A DNA stretch of 64,000 nt from Verrucomicrobiota bacterium (GTDB lineage: Bacteria; Verrucomicrobiota; Verrucomicrobiia; Opitutales; Seribacteraceae), in assembly GCA_027622665.1 (NCBI GenBank), contig JAQBYT010000011.1, forward strand, positions 1 to 64,000, read 5' to 3'. A program made the position numbers. This document shows positions 1 to 12,000 of this stretch, piece after piece. The first letter of the stretch is position 1; every line of letters begins with the position of its first letter.

Positions 1-3000
1 CCGGGGTCTGTAAAGTTTCCGTCTCCAGGGTCTGTAAAGTTACCATCACCGGGATCGGTAAAGTTACCATCGCCGGGGTCAGTAAAGTTTCCGTCTCCGG
101 GATCTGTAAAGTTACCATCGCCGGGATCGGTGAAGTTCCCATCGCCGGGGTCTGTAAAGTTTCCGTCTCCGGGGTCTGTAAAGTTGCCATCTCCAGGATC
201 AGTAAAGTTGCCATCTCCGGTGTCTGTAAAGTTACCATCACCGGGATCGGTAAAGTTACCATCACCGGGGTCAGTAAAGTTTCCATCTCCGGGGTCTGTA
301 AAGTTTCCGTCTCCGGGGTCTGTAAAGTTGCCGTCGCCGGGATCAGTAAAGTTACCATCACCGGGGTCTGTGAAGTTACCATCACCGGGATCGGTGAAGT
401 TGCCATCGCCGGGATCTGTAAAGTTACCATCGCCGGGGTCAGTAAAGTTTCCGTCTCCGGGGTCTGTAAAGTTCCCATCACCGGGGTCAGTAAAGTTCCC
501 ATCACCGGGGTCTGTAAAGTTTCCGTCTCCGGGATCTGTAAAGTTACCATCGCCGGGATCGGTGAAGTTCCCATCGCCGGGGTCTGTAAAGTTGCCATCT
601 CCAGGGTCTGTAAAGTTACCATCGCCGGGGTCTGTAAAGTTGCCATCACCGGGGTCTGTGAAGTTACCATCACCAGGATCTGTAAAGTTGCCATCTCCGG
701 GATCGGTAAAGTTTCCATCACCGGGGTCTGTAAAGTTACCGTCTCCGGGGTCAGTAAAGTTACCGTCTCCGGGATCCGTGTAATTCCCATCACCAGTATC
801 GGTGTAGTTCCCATCCCCCGATTCAGTAAAGTTTCCATCGACCGTGGCATAGTCACTTACATCGAAAAGATATGTGGAATCGGCCCCAATGGCGCTGACG
901 GCAAGAAAGTCGCCCGAATGAGATATACTGAACCCGAAATTGTCACTCCCCTCACCGTTGGGGGCAACAATTCGCTCGAGGTAGGTAAAAGATCCGTTGT
1001 CCTCAAGGCGATAGAGGTAGGCGGCGCCGGCGTTGGCAACGTTCCCGGGATCAGCGCTTTTGGCGCCTACGACGAGAAGATTCGCCGAGAGAGAGACGGA
1101 ACCTCCAAAATGGTCGTTTGCCGCACCTCCACCGTGATTATTCTTCCAGAGGAAAGTTGCAGTACCGTTTTCCTCCAAACGGTATGTATAAACAGCTCCT
1201 TTGTCGGCAAGAACTCCGGAATCACCTCCAGAATCGGCATATTGGGCGCCGACGGCAAGAATGTTTCCCGATTGGGAGACGGAAATCCCGAATTGGTCCT
1301 CCGACGTGGCGTCGGGGGCGGTTACCTTGGTCAGGTAAGTGGCGCTGCCATTCTGCTCAAGCTTGTATAAATAAGCGGCGCCCGCTGCGGAAACGCCTCC
1401 GGGATCGGACTTGTGGGAACCGACGGCGAGAAGATTTCCCGATAGAGACAAGGAAGCGCCAAATAAATCGCTCGCCCCCCGGTCAGGAGCATAAACTTTG
1501 TCCAGAAAGGTGGCGGTGCCGTTCTGCTCGACACGATATAGATAGGCAGATCCGGAATCCGTTATGCCTCCCGGATCGGAAGTGTGAGCGCCTACGGCAA
1601 GGATATCACCCGATTGGGAAACGGATTTACCAAAATAATCCATCGGCCCACCGTCGGGAGCTATGACCTTGCTCAAATAGGTGGTGCTTCCGTTCTGCTC
1701 CACGCGATACAGGTAGACAGCTCCGGCATCGGAAAAGCCTCCGAGATCGGAACCAAAGGCACCAACTGCCAGAAGGTTTCCCGACTGGGAGATGGAAGAC
1801 CCCAAGAAGTCGTTGGCAGCAGCATCGGGAGCCGTCACCTTTGACAAGTAGGTAGCAGTGCCGTTCTGCTCAGCACGATAAAGATAGGCAGCTCCAACAC
1901 CGCCCGCTGCCCATGAAGCGCCTACGGCAAGAATATCGCCCGATTGGGAGACGGAACCCCCAAATTGCATGTTGGCCGTGCCGTCAGGAGCAGAAACCTG
2001 CGCCATAAAATGAGCAGACAAATTGACCGGGGTCAGGTTTTGGCTCGCGAGATAGCTGTCGATGGCATCCTGATTCGGTAAAACTTGTGGATCGACAATG
2101 TAGTACAACGCAGAAGACACCTCCCACTGCCCATCGAGAAACGTCGTTAGACTGAAACGAATTTCGTCTTGGCCACCGATTACTGCTACTTCCTCAAAAG
2201 TGTAATTACCCTCATAGAGGATATTTACGTTTTCCGCCATGAAGTTGATGTGGGTCGAGTTGAGCTCGAATACAGGAAGCTCGCCTCCGTCGCCCGACAA
2301 GTGCTCGGTTAGTGCAAAATTACTTAAGAGCAAAACGAACAGGAGATGCAACTTGATCCTACAGGAAAAAAACAGCGCCGACTTCGAAATCGTCCGAAAC
2401 ATATTCTTTAGAGAAGAAAAGAAAAATAAATGCATTATCTATAGGCGAATCACTTGATGAAAGTTGACAACATTACTATTAGCGAGAAAAGGGGAAATCT
2501 TGCATATTTTCAAAAGAAAAAACAAACCCGGAGACTGAATCACTCGCAAGCCGTTGACCGGAGGCAAGTTGGGAAAGTGTAAACATTTCACTTGCGAAGA
2601 AGATTATTGGAACAATAAAAAAGGGACACGGATGAACAGAATATGAGTGCCTGGTGGACTTAACGTAAGACCCGATACACCTTGCCCCATGGCGAAAGGT
2701 AGACCGGAGCAAATAGTTCAGGGTCAAGGTTCTCCATAAGAAATCCTTGTACGAGCAAGGATTGGAATACCTCGTTGGCCATGAAGAACCATGCGGGGAT
2801 TACTTGGTAACCACGCGAGGGTATCTGGATAACCTCTCCCTCGGCGAGCATTTCGCCATCCTCTCGACCCGATGTTTGGGCCAAAGCCAAGGGATTGGCG
2901 CCGTGGCTGGCCGCGATTTGAGCGATGGTCTTGCCTCCGGCCGGGACAGTATAAGTTCGACCACCGAGGAAAGCCGGGAGGTTGCTTTGGATTAAGTGAT

Positions 3001-9000: not shown

Positions 9001-12000
9001 CATGGCCGTACCCACCATCATGGGAACGAGCATCGGATACGGAAGCCAGCGACCATGCTCCTCGAGCTTACCGTCCGGACCGATAACGCCCCCGAGCATC
9101 ACCTCGTAGCCTCCGTCTGCAGTGGGACCGGCTTTGATGATACCGAGGCGCGAAAGGGTCGACGGGTAGTCGAGAAAAGCGAGATCCGCCGCCTCAAGCA
9201 CACTGGCATTGGCCTCCATGGCCATTTCGCGTCCTTCGCGCCTTAGGGTGAACCCCCTGGGCAATGAATTTTCGAGGGCCAAGGATTGCCGAGCTTCGAC
9301 CAAGCAATCATCGCGAATTTCTGCCTCACTCGCATTGGCGTCAATTTCGGCTTTTGATCGTAGCGCGACCGAAACCAACAAACGACGCTGAGGAAAGAAA
9401 CGAAAGTTCTCCAATCGAATAAGCTTAGTTCCGGGAAAGCTGCTCAGATTCGGTTCATTGATAACCTTGGCCCAAAACGCGCCGGGGCGACCTTCCTTTG
9501 GTATACTCGCCAAAATCGCCTGAACGTTCTTGTTCGAGCTACTTTCCTCCAATCGTGTCCAGAGATCTCCTTTTGTTTTCGCTCTGTTGTAGACGAAATA
9601 AGCGGAAAAACGCTTTTGCTCTCTGCTGTATTCGTCGAGACCGCCGAAATACTCCCGAAAGGTCAACAAATCGAAAATACTTCCACCGCCGGAAACTTCC
9701 AAATCACGATTACTTTTCTTTCTTTCGTCTACCTCGGACTTGAATTTCGCGGATTCTTCAGCCGGCAAAAGGGGAAGAAGCATTTCCACTGGGCCCAAGT
9801 TGTTTTCTCGGAGTTGTTGCTCGGCTTGGGTCGACAAGGTAGAACTCCCCTCCCCCACCATTGCCAAGGTGTCTTGCGAGATTGAGGTAAAATAGACGGG
9901 CGAAGCCAAACCAAGCAGTAGAACCAAAGTAGCCACAGGGAACCACAAGGCGTTGCCAAATTTCCCAATTACTCGAAATTTCATAAGAAGTTAACTCGGG
10001 GCTGCAACCTTGAGGTAAACATACCGAGAAGCAAACGGATTTTACAAAACACTGCACATTTACGTAAGAAAGTCGATTTCTCTCTGTTTCGAAGCGACTA
10101 AGCAAATTGACCTTTGTGCAATCCTGAGGCACAACAAAGGTCAAAATCATTAACAAAATGATCCTTCGCATCACACAGTACGACGAACCCATCCTTAGGC
10201 AGGCCGGAGGGGACGTAACCGTCTTTGACGAGAAACTCGCCAAACTGGCGGAAGACATGGTCGATACCATGCATGGAGCGGAAGGAATAGGTCTAGCCGC
10301 ACAACAAGTGGGTAAGGCGCTCCGCTTTTGCGTAGTGGAGATACCTCACAATCCGGAACATCCGATGACTTGCATCTTCGACGGCAAACCGCTAAATCCC
10401 GACTTGCTCATGCCTCTCGCCTTGGCCAATCCTGAAATCGAGGAATTACCCGGTGACGATATGGTTTACGAAGAAGGGTGCCTATCATTCCCCGATATCC
10501 GAGGCGACGTCGTGAGAGCCGATCGAGTGCGAGTGCGCTACGCAGATCTGCAAGGTACCGAACATTCGCTCGAATGCGATGCTCTCCTCTCCCGTTGCAT
10601 TCAACACGAGACAGACCATCTCGAAGGCATTCTCTTCATAGACCGCATGGAACCTGAAGTTCTAGCCGAGATCAAACCCGACGTAAAAGAGCTTAAAAGA
10701 CTCACAAAAAAAGCCCGCATGCAGGAGTCGAAGCCCCCTCGCGAAAGCTGACGACCATGGGACGCAGGACACGTCAAGGGACGCTCATTTTGGAAACGAT
10801 CCGCCAAGCCAAGAGACCGTTGACTCCTGCTGAAGTTCACTCGGCCGCCTTGAAGGAAATACCAAACTTGGGTCTGGCCACCGCTTATCGACACGTAAAG
10901 GCTCTCGCGGAACAATCAGTTGTGGTGGGCGTCGACTATCCCGGACAACCGACACGCTACGAATGGGTAGACGGGCAAGACAAGACCCACTTCACCTGTC
11001 GAGGTTGCGACAAGCTTTTTGCCCTAGACCTCCCTCAAACGGATGAATTGCCTGTATTCGACCTACCTCCTGGATTCATAGCGACAGGAGGAGAGTTCAT
11101 CGTGTATGGGCTTTGCCCTAAGTGTTCGGGTTAGAACGAATAACGCAACCCGCCGAACGCCCCGATGCCCAAAGCGGGGAAACCGTCCACCTCTTCGTAT
11201 TCCTCGTCGAACAGATTCTCCACTCGCCCGAAAATACTCAAGGAAGAAGAAAGCTCATAGCTTCCATACAAACGGGCGACGACATAGTCCTCCCCTTCCG
11301 CCAGAGCAAAATCAACTCGATCGGACACCGACAGCCACTCAAATCCGCCATTTGCCTTTTCTCCCTGATAATCAACAGCCACCGAAAAGGTATGCCGAGG
11401 GCGACGAACAAGCCGAGAACCGTCGTTCTTCCTCGCATCCAGATAGGTGTAACCCGAACGAACTTGCCATGCTTGCGTCAAGGTCCGGACCAACGAAAGC
11501 TCCAGTCCACCTGTCTCCGCTTTATCTATATTTTTCATAATTCCAATCCAATCGCCATCGGGATCCCAATACTCGATCAGGTTCTCATACTTTGAGGAAA
11601 AACAAGATACGCTTCCCCGAGTAGTCCCGTCTTTGCCAAAGCGAAATCCAACTTCCCAAGACTTAATCTCTTCCGGCATGAGGTTAACATTCCCTCCCCA
11701 CCCCCACAAGTCGTTACCCGTCGGCACAGCAAAACTTTCGGAGTACCTACCGAACAAAGCAACGCCATCGACAAGCTCTTGCCGAGCAAAGACGGTGCCA
11801 GTCGTTTGCCCACCGTAGATCGAGTAATCTTCTTGGCGAAGTCCTGCGGTGACTTGGCTTCCCTCTGCAAAGGAAAACGCCAGCAGGCCAAAACCAGCCA
11901 AATTATTCAATCCATTGTCGACGGCGCCACCCTCCCTGTTAAAGTGCTGCTCATAATAATTTCCGCCCACTGTTAGGGACAAAGCATCCATCGCATCCCA

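Follow-up and report, generated by a model that had tools for sequence, protein, structure and literature searches.

We asked whether a family of marine Opitutales (Verrucomicrobiota) possesses a protein N-glycosylation enzyme of the Campylobacter type, which proteins it might modify, and how the genes around it relate to it. The analysed window, a stretch of 64,000 nucleotides on contig C43, carries three minus-strand open reading frames (ORFs), which were found again where the first-pass annotation had placed them: g01737 (P0001; 2660..5920, 1086 aa), g01738 (P0002; 5979..7700, 573 aa) and g01739 (P0003; 7690..9984, 764 aa). A fourth gene, P0004, lies immediately downstream of them.

The oligosaccharyltransferase gene

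Pfam detected STT3 (9.5e-20) and STT3-PglB_core (1.3e-20) in g01737, both above cut-offs and at the scores reported earlier. A phmmer search of the PDB matched C. lari PglB (6gxc, 4.9e-43; 5ogl, 6.2e-43; 3rce, 6.5e-40), in line with the previous value of ~5e-43, and the g01737 family profile matched it at 1.5e-101. With an AF2 model (pLDDT 78.5, pTM 0.77), the top Foldseek match was 6gxc_A (E 1.4e-25, target-normalised TM 0.68), followed lower in the list by STT3 and AglB (E 1.7e-8 to 3e-7). The protein has a transmembrane (TM) domain of ~13 helices, a core predicted to be periplasmic and, at its C-terminus, an extension of ~190 aa; the GT-C fold, the 13-helix TM domain and the periplasmic core are shared with C. 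lari and C. jejuni PglB (3rce, 5ogl, 6gxc). Unlike Campylobacter PglB, g01737 lies outside any pgl locus in a verrucomicrobial host, is only ~22% identical, carries a LysM-like unit and exceeds the 713-residue 5ogl chain by 373 aa, in agreement with the ~370 aa first estimated. The extra length comprises an N-terminal tail of ~55 aa, ~75 residues ahead of external loop 5 (EL5) and the C-terminal extension. The NCBIfam PglB equivalog model scored 196.6 bits, far under its cut-off of 1300, showing that g01737 is a distant relative to which specificity cannot safely be transferred.

Residue conservation was assessed in an alignment of 19 oligosaccharyltransferase (OST) sequences (A1), and every catalytic or binding position of C. 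lari PglB that we compared has an equivalent on the minus strand of g01737. D123 in THDSFYF (5552..5554) corresponds to D56, which binds the metal and the acceptor amide, and D225-T-D227 in GYYDTDM (5240..5248), a block identical in the alignment, to D154/D156. The E319 equivalent, previously left in an unaligned stretch, could be placed at E451 of the EL5 TIxE motif (T448-I-R-E451, 4568..4579), which the family profile pairs with I317-M-E319 of 6gxc. R529 in GLRFT (4334..4336) aligns with R375, the contact for the pyrophosphate of the lipid-linked glycan. WWDYG (residues 630-634, 4019..4033) is present as a block in 18/19 sequences, and PYEIMRIFP (residues 740-748, 3677..3703), an MxxI-type block contacting the +2 Ser/Thr, aligns with PYRMLRIMP. 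All of these motif matches except TIxE had been noted before, and all 19 sequences keep D123, D225, D227, E451, R529, W631 and G634. By profile alignment to 6gxc, R463 (4532..4534; 18/19) corresponds to R331, the partner of the sequon Asp at -2 according to passages of PMC4894442.

We consider it probable that g01737 is an active single-subunit PglB-type N-OST that modifies D/E-x-N-x-S/T sites of exported proteins, the extended sequon also used by Campylobacter PglB, within the wider scheme developed below. The enzyme would act at the periplasmic face of the inner membrane and transfer a pre-assembled glycan en bloc from undecaprenyl-pyrophosphate to the sequon Asn. D123, D225/D227, E451 and R529 would bind metal and substrate, the +2 Ser/Thr would be held by WWDYG and the MxxI block, and the acidic -2 residue would be read by R463.

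A six-frame protein search found the OST in 64/76 family genomes, our own included, so that the earlier 40/75 was an undercount; it is present in 24/26 high-quality genomes and in 5/5 genera. Profile PF21436 was found in 0/234 sampled Opitutales genomes outside the family and in 2/400 other sampled Verrucomicrobiota, both weak matches from a single genus. The 254 homologues, with a top tier at 43-97% identity, repeat the earlier figures. Taken together, sequence, profile, fold and motifs support the assignment of g01737 as a PglB-type N-OST with complete catalytic motifs, confined to one marine Opitutales family; these comparisons and the distribution were computed directly, as were the sequon statistics below with their controls.

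Most of the 64 genomes that hold the gene have it intact, and whole ORFs with invariant catalytic residues occur in five genera down to 38-55% identity. In four seawater RNA libraries, contigs 92-100% identical match each of the four genes in part and span both gene junctions, which is weak evidence of expression because DNA carry-over is possible. A conserved yet inactive relic is therefore scarcely credible, even though one relative (G020) carries the gene with three in-frame stops, as first described.

The beta-rich C-terminal extension (~residues 895-1086; 2663..3238, minus strand) lies past the end of the PglB alignment and is modelled at pLDDT 84-95. Its own C-terminus repeats the 'FLL..D..LF' segment found at the C-terminus of PglB (internal similarity 28 aa, E 3e-4), and the LysM-like beta-alpha-alpha-beta unit occupies ~residues 985-1033. 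At the equivalent place in a relative (P0080), LysM scored 27.2 bits against a cut-off of 20.9, and a LysM profile search of g01737 itself detected none. This module, absent from characterised PglBs, suggests a non-protein acceptor in the cell wall, and the low PglB identity and the lack of a linked pgl locus in the window would likewise fit an OST-fold enzyme with another job, acting on such an acceptor, on plain N-x-S/T or on another residue. However, all residues for binding an acceptor peptide are kept, namely WWDYG, the MxxI block, R463 and, for the Asn amide, D123/E451, and the proteome signature described below is that of the classical extended sequon. We regard a different job as highly improbable.

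The upstream gene pair

g01738 is predicted to have one N-terminal TM helix, a coiled coil and, at the C-terminus, a globular domain, with an invariant Cys-Asp-Phe (C10, D11, F12; alignment A3) at the TM helix; domain-profile searches returned nothing but sub-threshold coiled-coil matches. g01739 combines a TM helix at the N-terminus with a large, presumably periplasmic domain and five C-terminal helices, and matched no Pfam or NCBIfam family. The two genes overlap by 11 nt, and 58 nt separate g01738 from the OST gene. The order g01739-g01738-OST is complete in G059 and G066, the loci with enough flank, and a g01738 homologue lies immediately upstream of the OST in 10/11 relatives' loci. The three-gene operon with clade-specific partners first proposed is not supported as it stood: among 251 sampled Opitutales genomes, the conserved C-terminal part of g01739 (~300 aa, residues ~450-760) matches in 143 and the C-terminal domain of g01738 in 145, whereas just 16 have the OST. 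The two homologues are adjoining and co-oriented in 6/6 inspected OST-negative loci, with unrelated genes downstream. Upstream, a divergent peptide deformylase gene (10158..10748, plus strand; Pfam Pep_deformylase 5.1e-48) marks the edge of the gene string; G059 and 2/6 OST-negative loci have this divergent neighbour directly beside their g01739 homologue as well. The first-pass identification of g01737 is confirmed, its observation as a whole partly confirmed and its interpretation partly supported.

Family g01739 sequences differ from their OST-negative orthologues by an extra insert of ~200 aa, which is missing in 6/6 of the latter. The insert carries a sequon at alignment column 270 in 13/13 family sequences. 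A loop sequon of g01739 is found in 10/13 family sequences versus 0/6 OST-negative orthologues, and at an orthologous site the sequon reads DANAS, DVNAT, EANAT, DGNLS or DKNAS, keeping D/E, N and S/T with x free. The family-specific insert, the conserved order, the tight spacing and the RNA contigs across both junctions would all suit a dedicated multi-subunit OST machine, with g01738 and g01739 as accessory subunits that co-evolved with the enzyme. We think this unlikely, since PglB-type enzymes act as single subunits, and the pair is far more widespread than the OST and keeps its arrangement without it. The distribution instead indicates that g01739-g01738 is an older two-gene envelope module, present across Opitutales without the OST, behind which the OST gene was inserted.

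Sequon usage and candidate acceptors

The reading of g01737 as a PglB-type N-OST is additionally supported by the proteome. Among 6712 NxS/T sites in our genome (G000), the fraction with D/E at -2 was 0.244, versus 0.098-0.119 at -4, -3, -1, +1, +3 and +4; the control motifs N-x-A/G, Q-x-S/T and D-x-S/T gave 0.109-0.122 at their own -2. With longest ORFs as gene calls and hydropathy for export classes, both crude, the forward motif outnumbered its reverse, S/T-x-N-x-D/E, by a factor of 1.06-1.15 in proteins <600 aa without a hydrophobic segment. The factor was 2.60 where a hydrophobic segment lay at the N-terminus, 4.12 for multi-TM proteins and 10.2 for giant ORFs truncated at the N-terminus. 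The -2 excess was limited to hydrophobic-segment and giant proteins, and it persisted after dropping duplicate contexts and all proteins >1000 aa.

Comparison genomes were sampled as contiguous or spaced stretches of 40-400 kb, and the excess was found again in three other family genera (0.24-0.46; samples of at least 190 sites), with OST-positive values of 0.265 (G059), 0.255 (G066), 0.263 (G075) and 0.458 (G017). OST-negative Opitutales showed no excess (0.092, 0.091, 0.071, 0.088, 0.065). G035 gave 10/56 (0.179), and G020, with its interrupted OST, 30/196 (0.153). For hydrophobic-segment proteins of up to 1000 aa, OST-positive and OST-negative samples differed at 83/349 versus 29/444 (odds ratio 4.5, Fisher p 4e-12, with relatives that are not independent).

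Extended sequons number at least 10 in each of 28 ORFs of our genome, and several unrelated repeat proteins have one per repeat. The most extreme is P0004 (3..2435, minus strand; 811 aa), which has a hydrophobic N-terminus and is cut by the contig start; its C-terminal remainder lies at C57:21101-22582, a placement backed by repeat identity and synteny. Seven FG-GAP_2 repeats (2.9e-71, 7 stretches), 6 of them bearing an E-x-N-G-S/T sequon, are followed by at least 35 tandem octapeptide units of the PGDGNFTD type, each with D-G-N-F/Y-T, and 43/45 NxS/T sites have D/E at -2. The encoding array (1..794, minus strand) has a 24-nt period and a 72-nt super-period (TRF: 32.2 copies, 84% matches). At the DNA level its 31 perfect peptide units come in 23 different versions, which on average show 3.39 synonymous differences per 24 nt, suggesting purifying selection on the peptide. 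The acceptors, for which the first pass had no names, now have strong candidates in P0004 and about 35 other ORFs.

FG-GAP, cadherin-like and RCC1-like domains often bind Ca2+, some have D-x-N-G-S/T-D-like motifs in many bacteria, and the sequon-richest proteins are acidic repeat proteins of these types. The excess and the PGDGNFTD array might thus reflect Ca-binding acidic repeats and a lineage-specific expansion of adhesin domains, unrelated to glycosylation. For giant adhesins, part of the excess may indeed be the intrinsic D-F-N-G-S/T-D motif of cadherin/VCBS-like repeats. As a general explanation, however, this is very unlikely: the signal is confined to -2 and to S/T at +2 while the controls stay flat, it outlasts the removal of duplicates and large proteins, small proteins that lack hydrophobic segments do not show it, x positions vary around fixed D/E, N and S/T, as at the orthologous g01739 site, and it follows OST presence between genomes.

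Candidate glycan source and known systems

No glycan-assembly cluster was found among the 33 other window ORFs by Pfam scan, as the first pass had stated for the neighbourhood of the operon. The glycan would be made away from the OST locus, and the best candidate is a cluster on contig C13 encoding a PglK-like ABC exporter, phosphoglycosyl transferases, a 4,6-dehydratase, a LegC/PglE-type aminotransferase, an acetyltransferase and GT4 enzymes, which could equally serve O-antigen or capsule synthesis. Such scattering would resemble Helicobacter pullorum, whose pgl genes are described in a part of PMC6025236 as dispersed over several loci rather than clustered with pglB; H. pullorum differs in being a member of the Campylobacterota with two PglB paralogues and few known glycoproteins.

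For PglB, passages of PMC4894442 and PMC6025236 name no taxa beyond Epsilon- and Deltaproteobacteria, Aquificae and Deferribacter. Desulfovibrio homologues are likewise distant PglB relatives outside Campylobacterota, with pgl genes not arranged as in Campylobacter; they accept plain N-x-T with relaxed -2 specificity, and some PglBs keeping the R331 equivalent are also relaxed at -2, as stated in a portion of PMC4894442. The family's sequon signature suggests that g01737, unlike the Desulfovibrio enzymes, requires or prefers the -2 acid. Archaeal AglB and eukaryotic STT3 share the fold and the WWDYG core but match g01737 far more poorly than PglB, whose TIxE motif it has, and nothing indicates a dolichol-type pathway or accessory subunits for g01737. 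Archaeal and eukaryotic glycoproteomes are large and include heavily glycosylated surface proteins, and the glycoproteome of the family OST would similarly be large, not limited to a few proteins. We met no report of a genome-wide sequon excess in Campylobacter, in literature not searched specifically for one. This marine verrucomicrobial family thus has a Campylobacter-type N-glycosylation enzyme, and its secreted proteins, the downstream P0004 included, are rich in the predicted target motif.

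Identity, architecture and distribution of the oligosaccharyltransferase

The three minus-strand ORFs of the first-pass annotation were found where it had placed them: g01737, which encodes the oligosaccharyltransferase (OST; 2660-5920, 1086 aa), g01738 (5979-7700, 573 aa) and g01739 (7690-9984, 764 aa). The g01739 and g01738 ORFs overlap by 11 nt, and 58 nt separate g01738 from the OST gene. The Pfam scores reported for g01737 were reproduced exactly (STT3, 9.5e-20; STT3-PglB_core, 1.3e-20), with 71.9 bits for PF02516 (cut-off 24.5) and 74.7 bits for PF21436 (cut-off 23). Its match to C. 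lari PglB (6gxc) was likewise recovered by phmmer at 4.9e-43, and in that alignment THDSFYF, GYYDTDM, GLRFT, WWDYG (630-634) and PYEIMRIFP each paired with a PglB counterpart, PYRMLRIMP in the case of the MxxI block PYEIMRIFP. In an alignment of 19 OST homologues that are 28-68% identical to g01737 (A1), the residues D123, D225, D227, E451, R529, W631 and G634 were invariant (19/19). D123, D225/D227 and E451 correspond to D56, D154/D156 and E319 of C. lari PglB. The equivalent of E319 had earlier been left in an unaligned stretch, and it can now be placed: a family profile aligned with 6gxc (1.5e-101) sets the invariant E451 opposite I317-M-E319, within T448-I-R-E451, the TIxE motif of external loop 5 (EL5). 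The profile was needed for this, as a PDB alignment using residues 380-500 alone returned nothing relevant. R529 is the counterpart of R375, the lipid pyrophosphate Arg, and R463, which is present in 18/19 sequences of A1, falls on C. lari R331 in the profile alignment. Passages of PMC4894442 describe a salt bridge between R331 of PglB and the -2 Asp of the acceptor, and also record that some -2-relaxed PglBs retain an R331-type Arg.

A Foldseek search with the AlphaFold2 model of g01737 (pLDDT 78.5, pTM 0.77) ranked PglB first (6gxc_A; E 1.4e-25, TM 0.68 normalised to target), followed by STT3 and AglB (E 3e-9 to 4e-7). The assignment of g01737 as a real PglB-type enzyme is thus upheld by Pfam domains, motifs and fold. 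With every motif and fold comparison in agreement, the protein is predicted to be mechanistically a PglB. However, its identity to Campylobacter PglB is only ~22%, and it scored 196.6 bits against the Campylobacter PglB equivalog NF050801 (NCBIfam), below the cut-off of 1300. By sequence, g01737 is a distant relative of Campylobacter PglB and no orthologue in NCBI's sense. PF18527 (STT3_PglB_C) was absent from its Pfam matches at E <= 0.01, and in the precomputed Pfam list this domain occurred only in the distant homologues P0122 and P0124.

The extra length of the enzyme is made up of an N-terminal tail, ~75 poorly modelled residues before EL5, and a C-terminal extension from ~residue 895 that is confidently modelled (pLDDT 84-95). 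The modelled extension contains a beta-alpha-alpha-beta unit at residues 988-1033, and at its end the C-terminal segment of PglB occurs a second time (28 aa, E 3e-4). The equivalent stretch of a relative, P0080, matched LysM (PF01476) with 27.2 bits (cut-off 20.9), and the extension of g01737 itself gave no PF01476 match at E <= 1. Through such a LysM-like extension the enzyme could be anchored either to the cell wall or to its glycan product.

The first-pass annotation had counted the OST in 40 of 75 family genomes. Its presence across the family stood, but the count was too low: a six-frame search found the gene in 64/76 genomes, this one counted, and in 24/26 of those of high quality, covering 5/5 genera; G004 and G019 were among the genomes that gave no OST. 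In an even sample of Opitutales, PF21436 was found in 15/16 other family genomes vs 0/234 genomes of 36 other families. A sample of the phylum added 2/400 other genomes, confined to one genus and with weak matches (27-30 bits, ORFs ~710 aa). The nearest genome matches were labelled Opitutales, Opitutia, Puniceicoccaceae bacterium, Verrucomicrobia bacterium TMED40/44/56 and Candidatus Chordibacter forsetii; together with Tara-sourced homologues, these labels fit a marine clade. Distant homologues (29-32% identity, ORFs of ~700 aa) were also seen in a few other Verrucomicrobiota (L179, L180, G369, G438), one MAG that carries such a homologue being labelled Akkermansia muciniphila. These ~700-aa proteins appear to be a separate, shorter type of OST. 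The relative already noted to carry three stops in the gene, G020, indeed has three in-frame stops in its OST (TGA, TAG, TAA; G020:C8:132832-135957). Homologues of a giant cadherin-like, sequon-rich protein in that genome are also full of stops and frame breaks (G020:C11:1-9400), a picture to be expected if enzyme and substrate decayed together, and equally if the assembly is poor.

A predicted acceptor-site signature in the proteome

Acceptor sequons were counted in 3427 non-overlapping ORFs, called in the 4.5-Mb assembly with a crude longest-ORF-first procedure. An acidic residue stood at -2 in 24.4% of 6712 N-x-S/T sites (x not Pro). At -4, -3, -1, +1, +3 and +4 of the same sites the frequency of D/E was 9.8-11.9%, and in the -2 position of three controls (N-x-A/G, Q-x-S/T, D-x-S/T) it was 10.9-12.2%, against a background of 12.4%. 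We then compared the forward extended sequon, D/E-x-N-x-S/T, with its reversal, S/T-x-N-x-D/E, by protein class and with repeated contexts removed. The forward/reversed ratio was 1.06-1.15 in proteins <600 aa without a hydrophobic segment, 2.60 where the N-terminus had a hydrophobic segment, 4.12 for multi-TM proteins and 10.2 in giant ORFs cut at contig ends. The genome holds ~900 more extended sequons than the reversed-motif baseline. At least one extended sequon was found in 610/3427 ORFs, at least 8 in 35 ORFs and at least 10 in 28, and the sequon-rich ORFs include cadherin-like, RCC1-like and beta-propeller giants.

Unrelated repeat proteins with one sequon per unit were found at C30:114106-121269, C11:2-1672, C20:3-842, C30:1-1896, C42:25948-30714, C12:42322-48480 and C22:127566-130079. 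Among them, C30 has a 17-aa ...HDDGNQTAGTD... repeat, ...LADLNxT... repeats occur on C11, C20 and C30, the repeat on C42 has a period of 7 aa, and RCC1-like repeats carry V-V-D/E-A-N-V-T.

The same -2 statistic was taken from sampled stretches of genomes with and without the OST. Among OST-negative Opitutales, the fraction of sites with D/E at -2 was 0.092 (G090, 466 sites), 0.091 (G084, 242), 0.071 (G077, 154), 0.088 (G082, 91) and 0.065 (six further loci, 139). In other genera, OST-positive genomes gave 0.265 (G059, 525 sites), 0.255 (G066, 290), 0.263 (G075, 190) and 0.458 (G017, 190), the last figure owing most to a single protein of 3879 aa, which has 90 extended sequons. The 56 sites of a small G035 sample gave 0.179. 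In G020, whose OST carries stops, the fraction was 0.153 (30/196) in a 160-kb sample without any giant surface protein. Restricted to uncut proteins of <=1000 aa with a hydrophobic segment, D/E stood at -2 in 83/349 sites of OST-positive vs 29/444 of OST-negative genomes (odds ratio 4.5, Fisher p 4e-12), a p value that overstates the case because related genomes are not independent.

Overall, the -2 excess is position-specific and compartment-dependent, leaves the x positions free to vary, and goes with the presence of the OST gene. Selection for acceptor sites of the PglB type would leave such a pattern, which is also in keeping with the conservation of R463. Taking sequence and proteome statistics together, we consider it likely that g01737 is an active N-OST which uses D/E-x-N-x-S/T on many exported proteins. 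In the OST-negative Opitutales themselves, D/E at -2 was rarer in proteins with hydrophobic segments (29/444, 0.065) than in those without (55/522, 0.105), and a slight avoidance of acidic residues at -2 is possible there.

Genomic setting: a poly-sequon neighbour, an older membrane-protein pair and a candidate glycan region

A further minus-strand gene, P0004 (3-2435), lies 224 nt downstream of the OST, outside the region covered by the first-pass annotation, and runs off the contig start. Neither a terminator-like hairpin nor a convincing promoter was seen in the 224-nt gap. Its product has a hydrophobic N-terminus followed by seven FG-GAP_2 repeats (2.9e-71), within which lie six sequons of the form E-Q/E/D-N-G-S/T. 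After the FG-GAP_2 region come 35 or more octapeptide units, all with D-G-N-F/Y-T; their sequence is PGDGNFTD, apart from variants where the array begins. In all, 43/45 of the NxS/T sites in P0004 have D/E at -2. Such an array might be a fresh product of slippage. This is ruled out by its 24-nt units, which are only 84% alike, and by the 23 DNA versions that encode the 31 perfect peptide units. The units differ by a mean of 3.39 synonymous changes, and this synonymous divergence indicates that the PGDGNFTD peptide is under purifying selection.

The contig breaks inside the array (window 1-794), and the remainder is found at the end of contig C57, where an ORF (21101-22582) opens with the same repeats; the repeat number is thus a lower bound, the array being split between the start of C43 and the end of C57. 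Next on C57 (14466-20870) comes a gene for a FecR-domain protein of 2135 aa; in genera g3 and g4, the gene immediately after the OST has its best homologue here. This synteny supports the join of C43 and C57, and it indicates that the poly-sequon gene was inserted between the OST and an older downstream neighbour in this genus. Two other members of the genus, G023 and G025, also carry this gene behind the OST, with 93% and 99.8% identity across the 424 aa that their loci cover. In G022 a different protein is encoded, whose D-G-N-x-T octapeptide array is short and in part degenerate. The adjacent gene is a candidate substrate, and the proteome signature is indirect evidence for the predicted activity and specificity of the OST.

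On the upstream side, the description of g01738 and g01739 as clade-specific partners of the enzyme did not hold, since their homologues are widespread in Opitutales, mostly without an OST. Among 251 Opitutales genomes sampled, residues ~450-760 of g01739 had matches in 143 and the C-terminal domain of g01738 in 145, and the OST was present in only 16. In 6/6 OST-negative loci fetched, the two homologues (~490-580 aa and 400-545 aa) were adjacent and co-oriented, with unrelated genes downstream, and a divergent peptide deformylase gene (def) stood directly upstream of the pair in 2/6, as it does in the window and in G059. These loci and counts indicate that g01739/g01738 is an ancestral Opitutales module behind which the OST gene was placed in this family. 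They argue against a multi-subunit OST with dedicated accessory proteins, as the partner genes are not confined to OST genomes.

No known family or fold was found for g01738 or g01739. The former combines an N-terminal TM helix, in which C10-D11-F12 is invariant in 8/8 sequences (5 of them from OST-negative genomes), with a coiled coil and a conserved C-terminal domain. An invariant Asp in a single TM helix defines the MotB/ExbD/TolR family. The buried Asp of g01738, in a single-pass partner of a polytopic protein, recalls that arrangement. For g01739, PF01618 (MotA_ExbB) had 11 other loci over cut-off in the genome, with g01739 not among them even at E <= 10, and hhalign of g01739 against the paralogues of this genome gave a probability of 0.4%; neither comparison lends support to a MotA/ExbB-like channel. 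The protein matched no Pfam or NCBIfam family and no fold above helical-bundle noise: Foldseek against the PDB gave nothing at E <= 0.001, VIA-align wide gave only generic three-helix bundles (Z <= 11.2, the noise range for helical models), and the Atlas search gave only unnamed Verrucomicrobiota clusters. Compared with the OST-negative orthologues, g01739 proteins of the family carry an extra insert of ~200 aa, which holds a sequon in 13/13 sequences. The loop sequon D/E-Q/N-N-L-T was present in 10/13 family sequences vs 0/6 OST-negative orthologues, and g01739 itself may be a substrate of the OST. A complex prediction of the insert (140-335) with the periplasmic part of the OST (600-1086) gave a score of 0.01 and a mark of 0.32, which weighs neither way on binding.

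Four seawater RNA libraries, from four studies, yielded contigs that match all four genes in part, at 92-100% identity. The junction of g01738 and the OST was spanned by single contigs (5740-6161 and 5741-6404), and that of g01739 and g01738 by others (7492-8052 and 7379-8024). They lend weak support to expression, since such libraries may contain DNA and a two-gene contig is no proof of one transcript; many stretches of the locus were uncovered, which has no bearing on expression.

As the first-pass annotation had stated, no pgl-like cluster lies beside the operon: none was found among the 33 other window ORFs scanned, in which the only sugar-nucleotide enzyme was a mannose-1-phosphate guanylyltransferase-like gene (49253-50416). 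Among the window genes, a DUF1501 gene adjoins one for a 1962-aa WD40/PSCyt2/PSD1 protein (24614-32035), a pairing that is common in Planctomycetes and Verrucomicrobia and forms an ordinary context. Unlike the Campylobacter pgl locus, in which pglA, C, D, E, F, H, I, J and K surround the OST, the enzyme here is not embedded, and the candidate genes are unlinked, on C13. Two of the three Bac_transf phosphoglycosyl transferases of the genome lie on that contig, inside a polysaccharide region of ~40 kb (C13:16000-55000; L073, L074). This region encodes a small PglC-sized transferase, dehydratases (among them a Polysacc_synt_2 4,6-dehydratase) and epimerases, a GNAT acetyltransferase beside a LegC-family aminotransferase (530 bits, cut-off 420), GT4 enzymes and a WecA/MraY-family transferase. 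It further encodes an ABC exporter with PglK as its top NCBIfam hit (309.7 bits over the full length, below the cut-off of 1000), two asparagine-synthase-like amidotransferases, methyltransferases and a heparinase II/III-like protein. PglD_N (PF17836) was not found in the genome, which is 93.5% complete; the GNAT enzyme stands next to the aminotransferase instead. The C13 region might supply a lipid-linked glycan whose reducing end is a 2-acetamido sugar, but it is no more than a candidate, as O-antigens and capsules are made by such regions too.

Novelty and biological meaning

Bacterial OST-dependent N-glycosylation is known mainly from Campylobacterota and from a few Desulfobacterota, Aquificae and Deferribacter, where a modest set of proteins is modified. 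Some homologues of g01737 are already annotated automatically as undecaprenyl-diphosphooligosaccharide--protein glycosyltransferase or STT3 domain-containing protein, so the family assignment of the gene is not new. New here are the phylum, the domain architecture with its LysM-like C-terminal extension, the graft onto an older envelope module, and the apparent scale of the glycoproteome with its natural poly-sequon proteins. Seribacter and Chordibacter are reportedly described by Wilkie and Orellana (2025), which may bear on this claim. Among the papers searched, none was found to treat this gene, and none joined PglB or oligosaccharyltransferase with Verrucomicrobia, Verrucomicrobiota or Opitutales in a relevant manner; PMC4973528 has both words, in unrelated places.

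The whole exported proteome appears to be reshaped around the bacterial sequon. We give an even chance to the fuller reading, a dense N-glycan coat built on a PglB-type enzyme and the largest predicted bacterial N-glycoproteome. This reading includes several independently evolved 'N-mucins' with one sequon per 7-22-residue repeat, an OST that was acquired and became integrated with an ancient envelope module, and the placement, in one genus, of a gene for an extreme poly-sequon substrate directly behind the OST. If confirmed, OST activity and specificity would be predictable from genomes alone through proteome sequon statistics, and a divergent OST with natural poly-sequon carriers might find use in glycoengineering. 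The host family is marine and free-living, becomes abundant seasonally, and degrades polysaccharides. We suggest that in this glycan-rich niche the glycans might protect giant adhesins and enzymes from proteases, phages or grazers. If confirmed, general N-glycosylation would reach the PVC superphylum, and the family would offer a natural model for why bacteria glycosylate their surface proteins.
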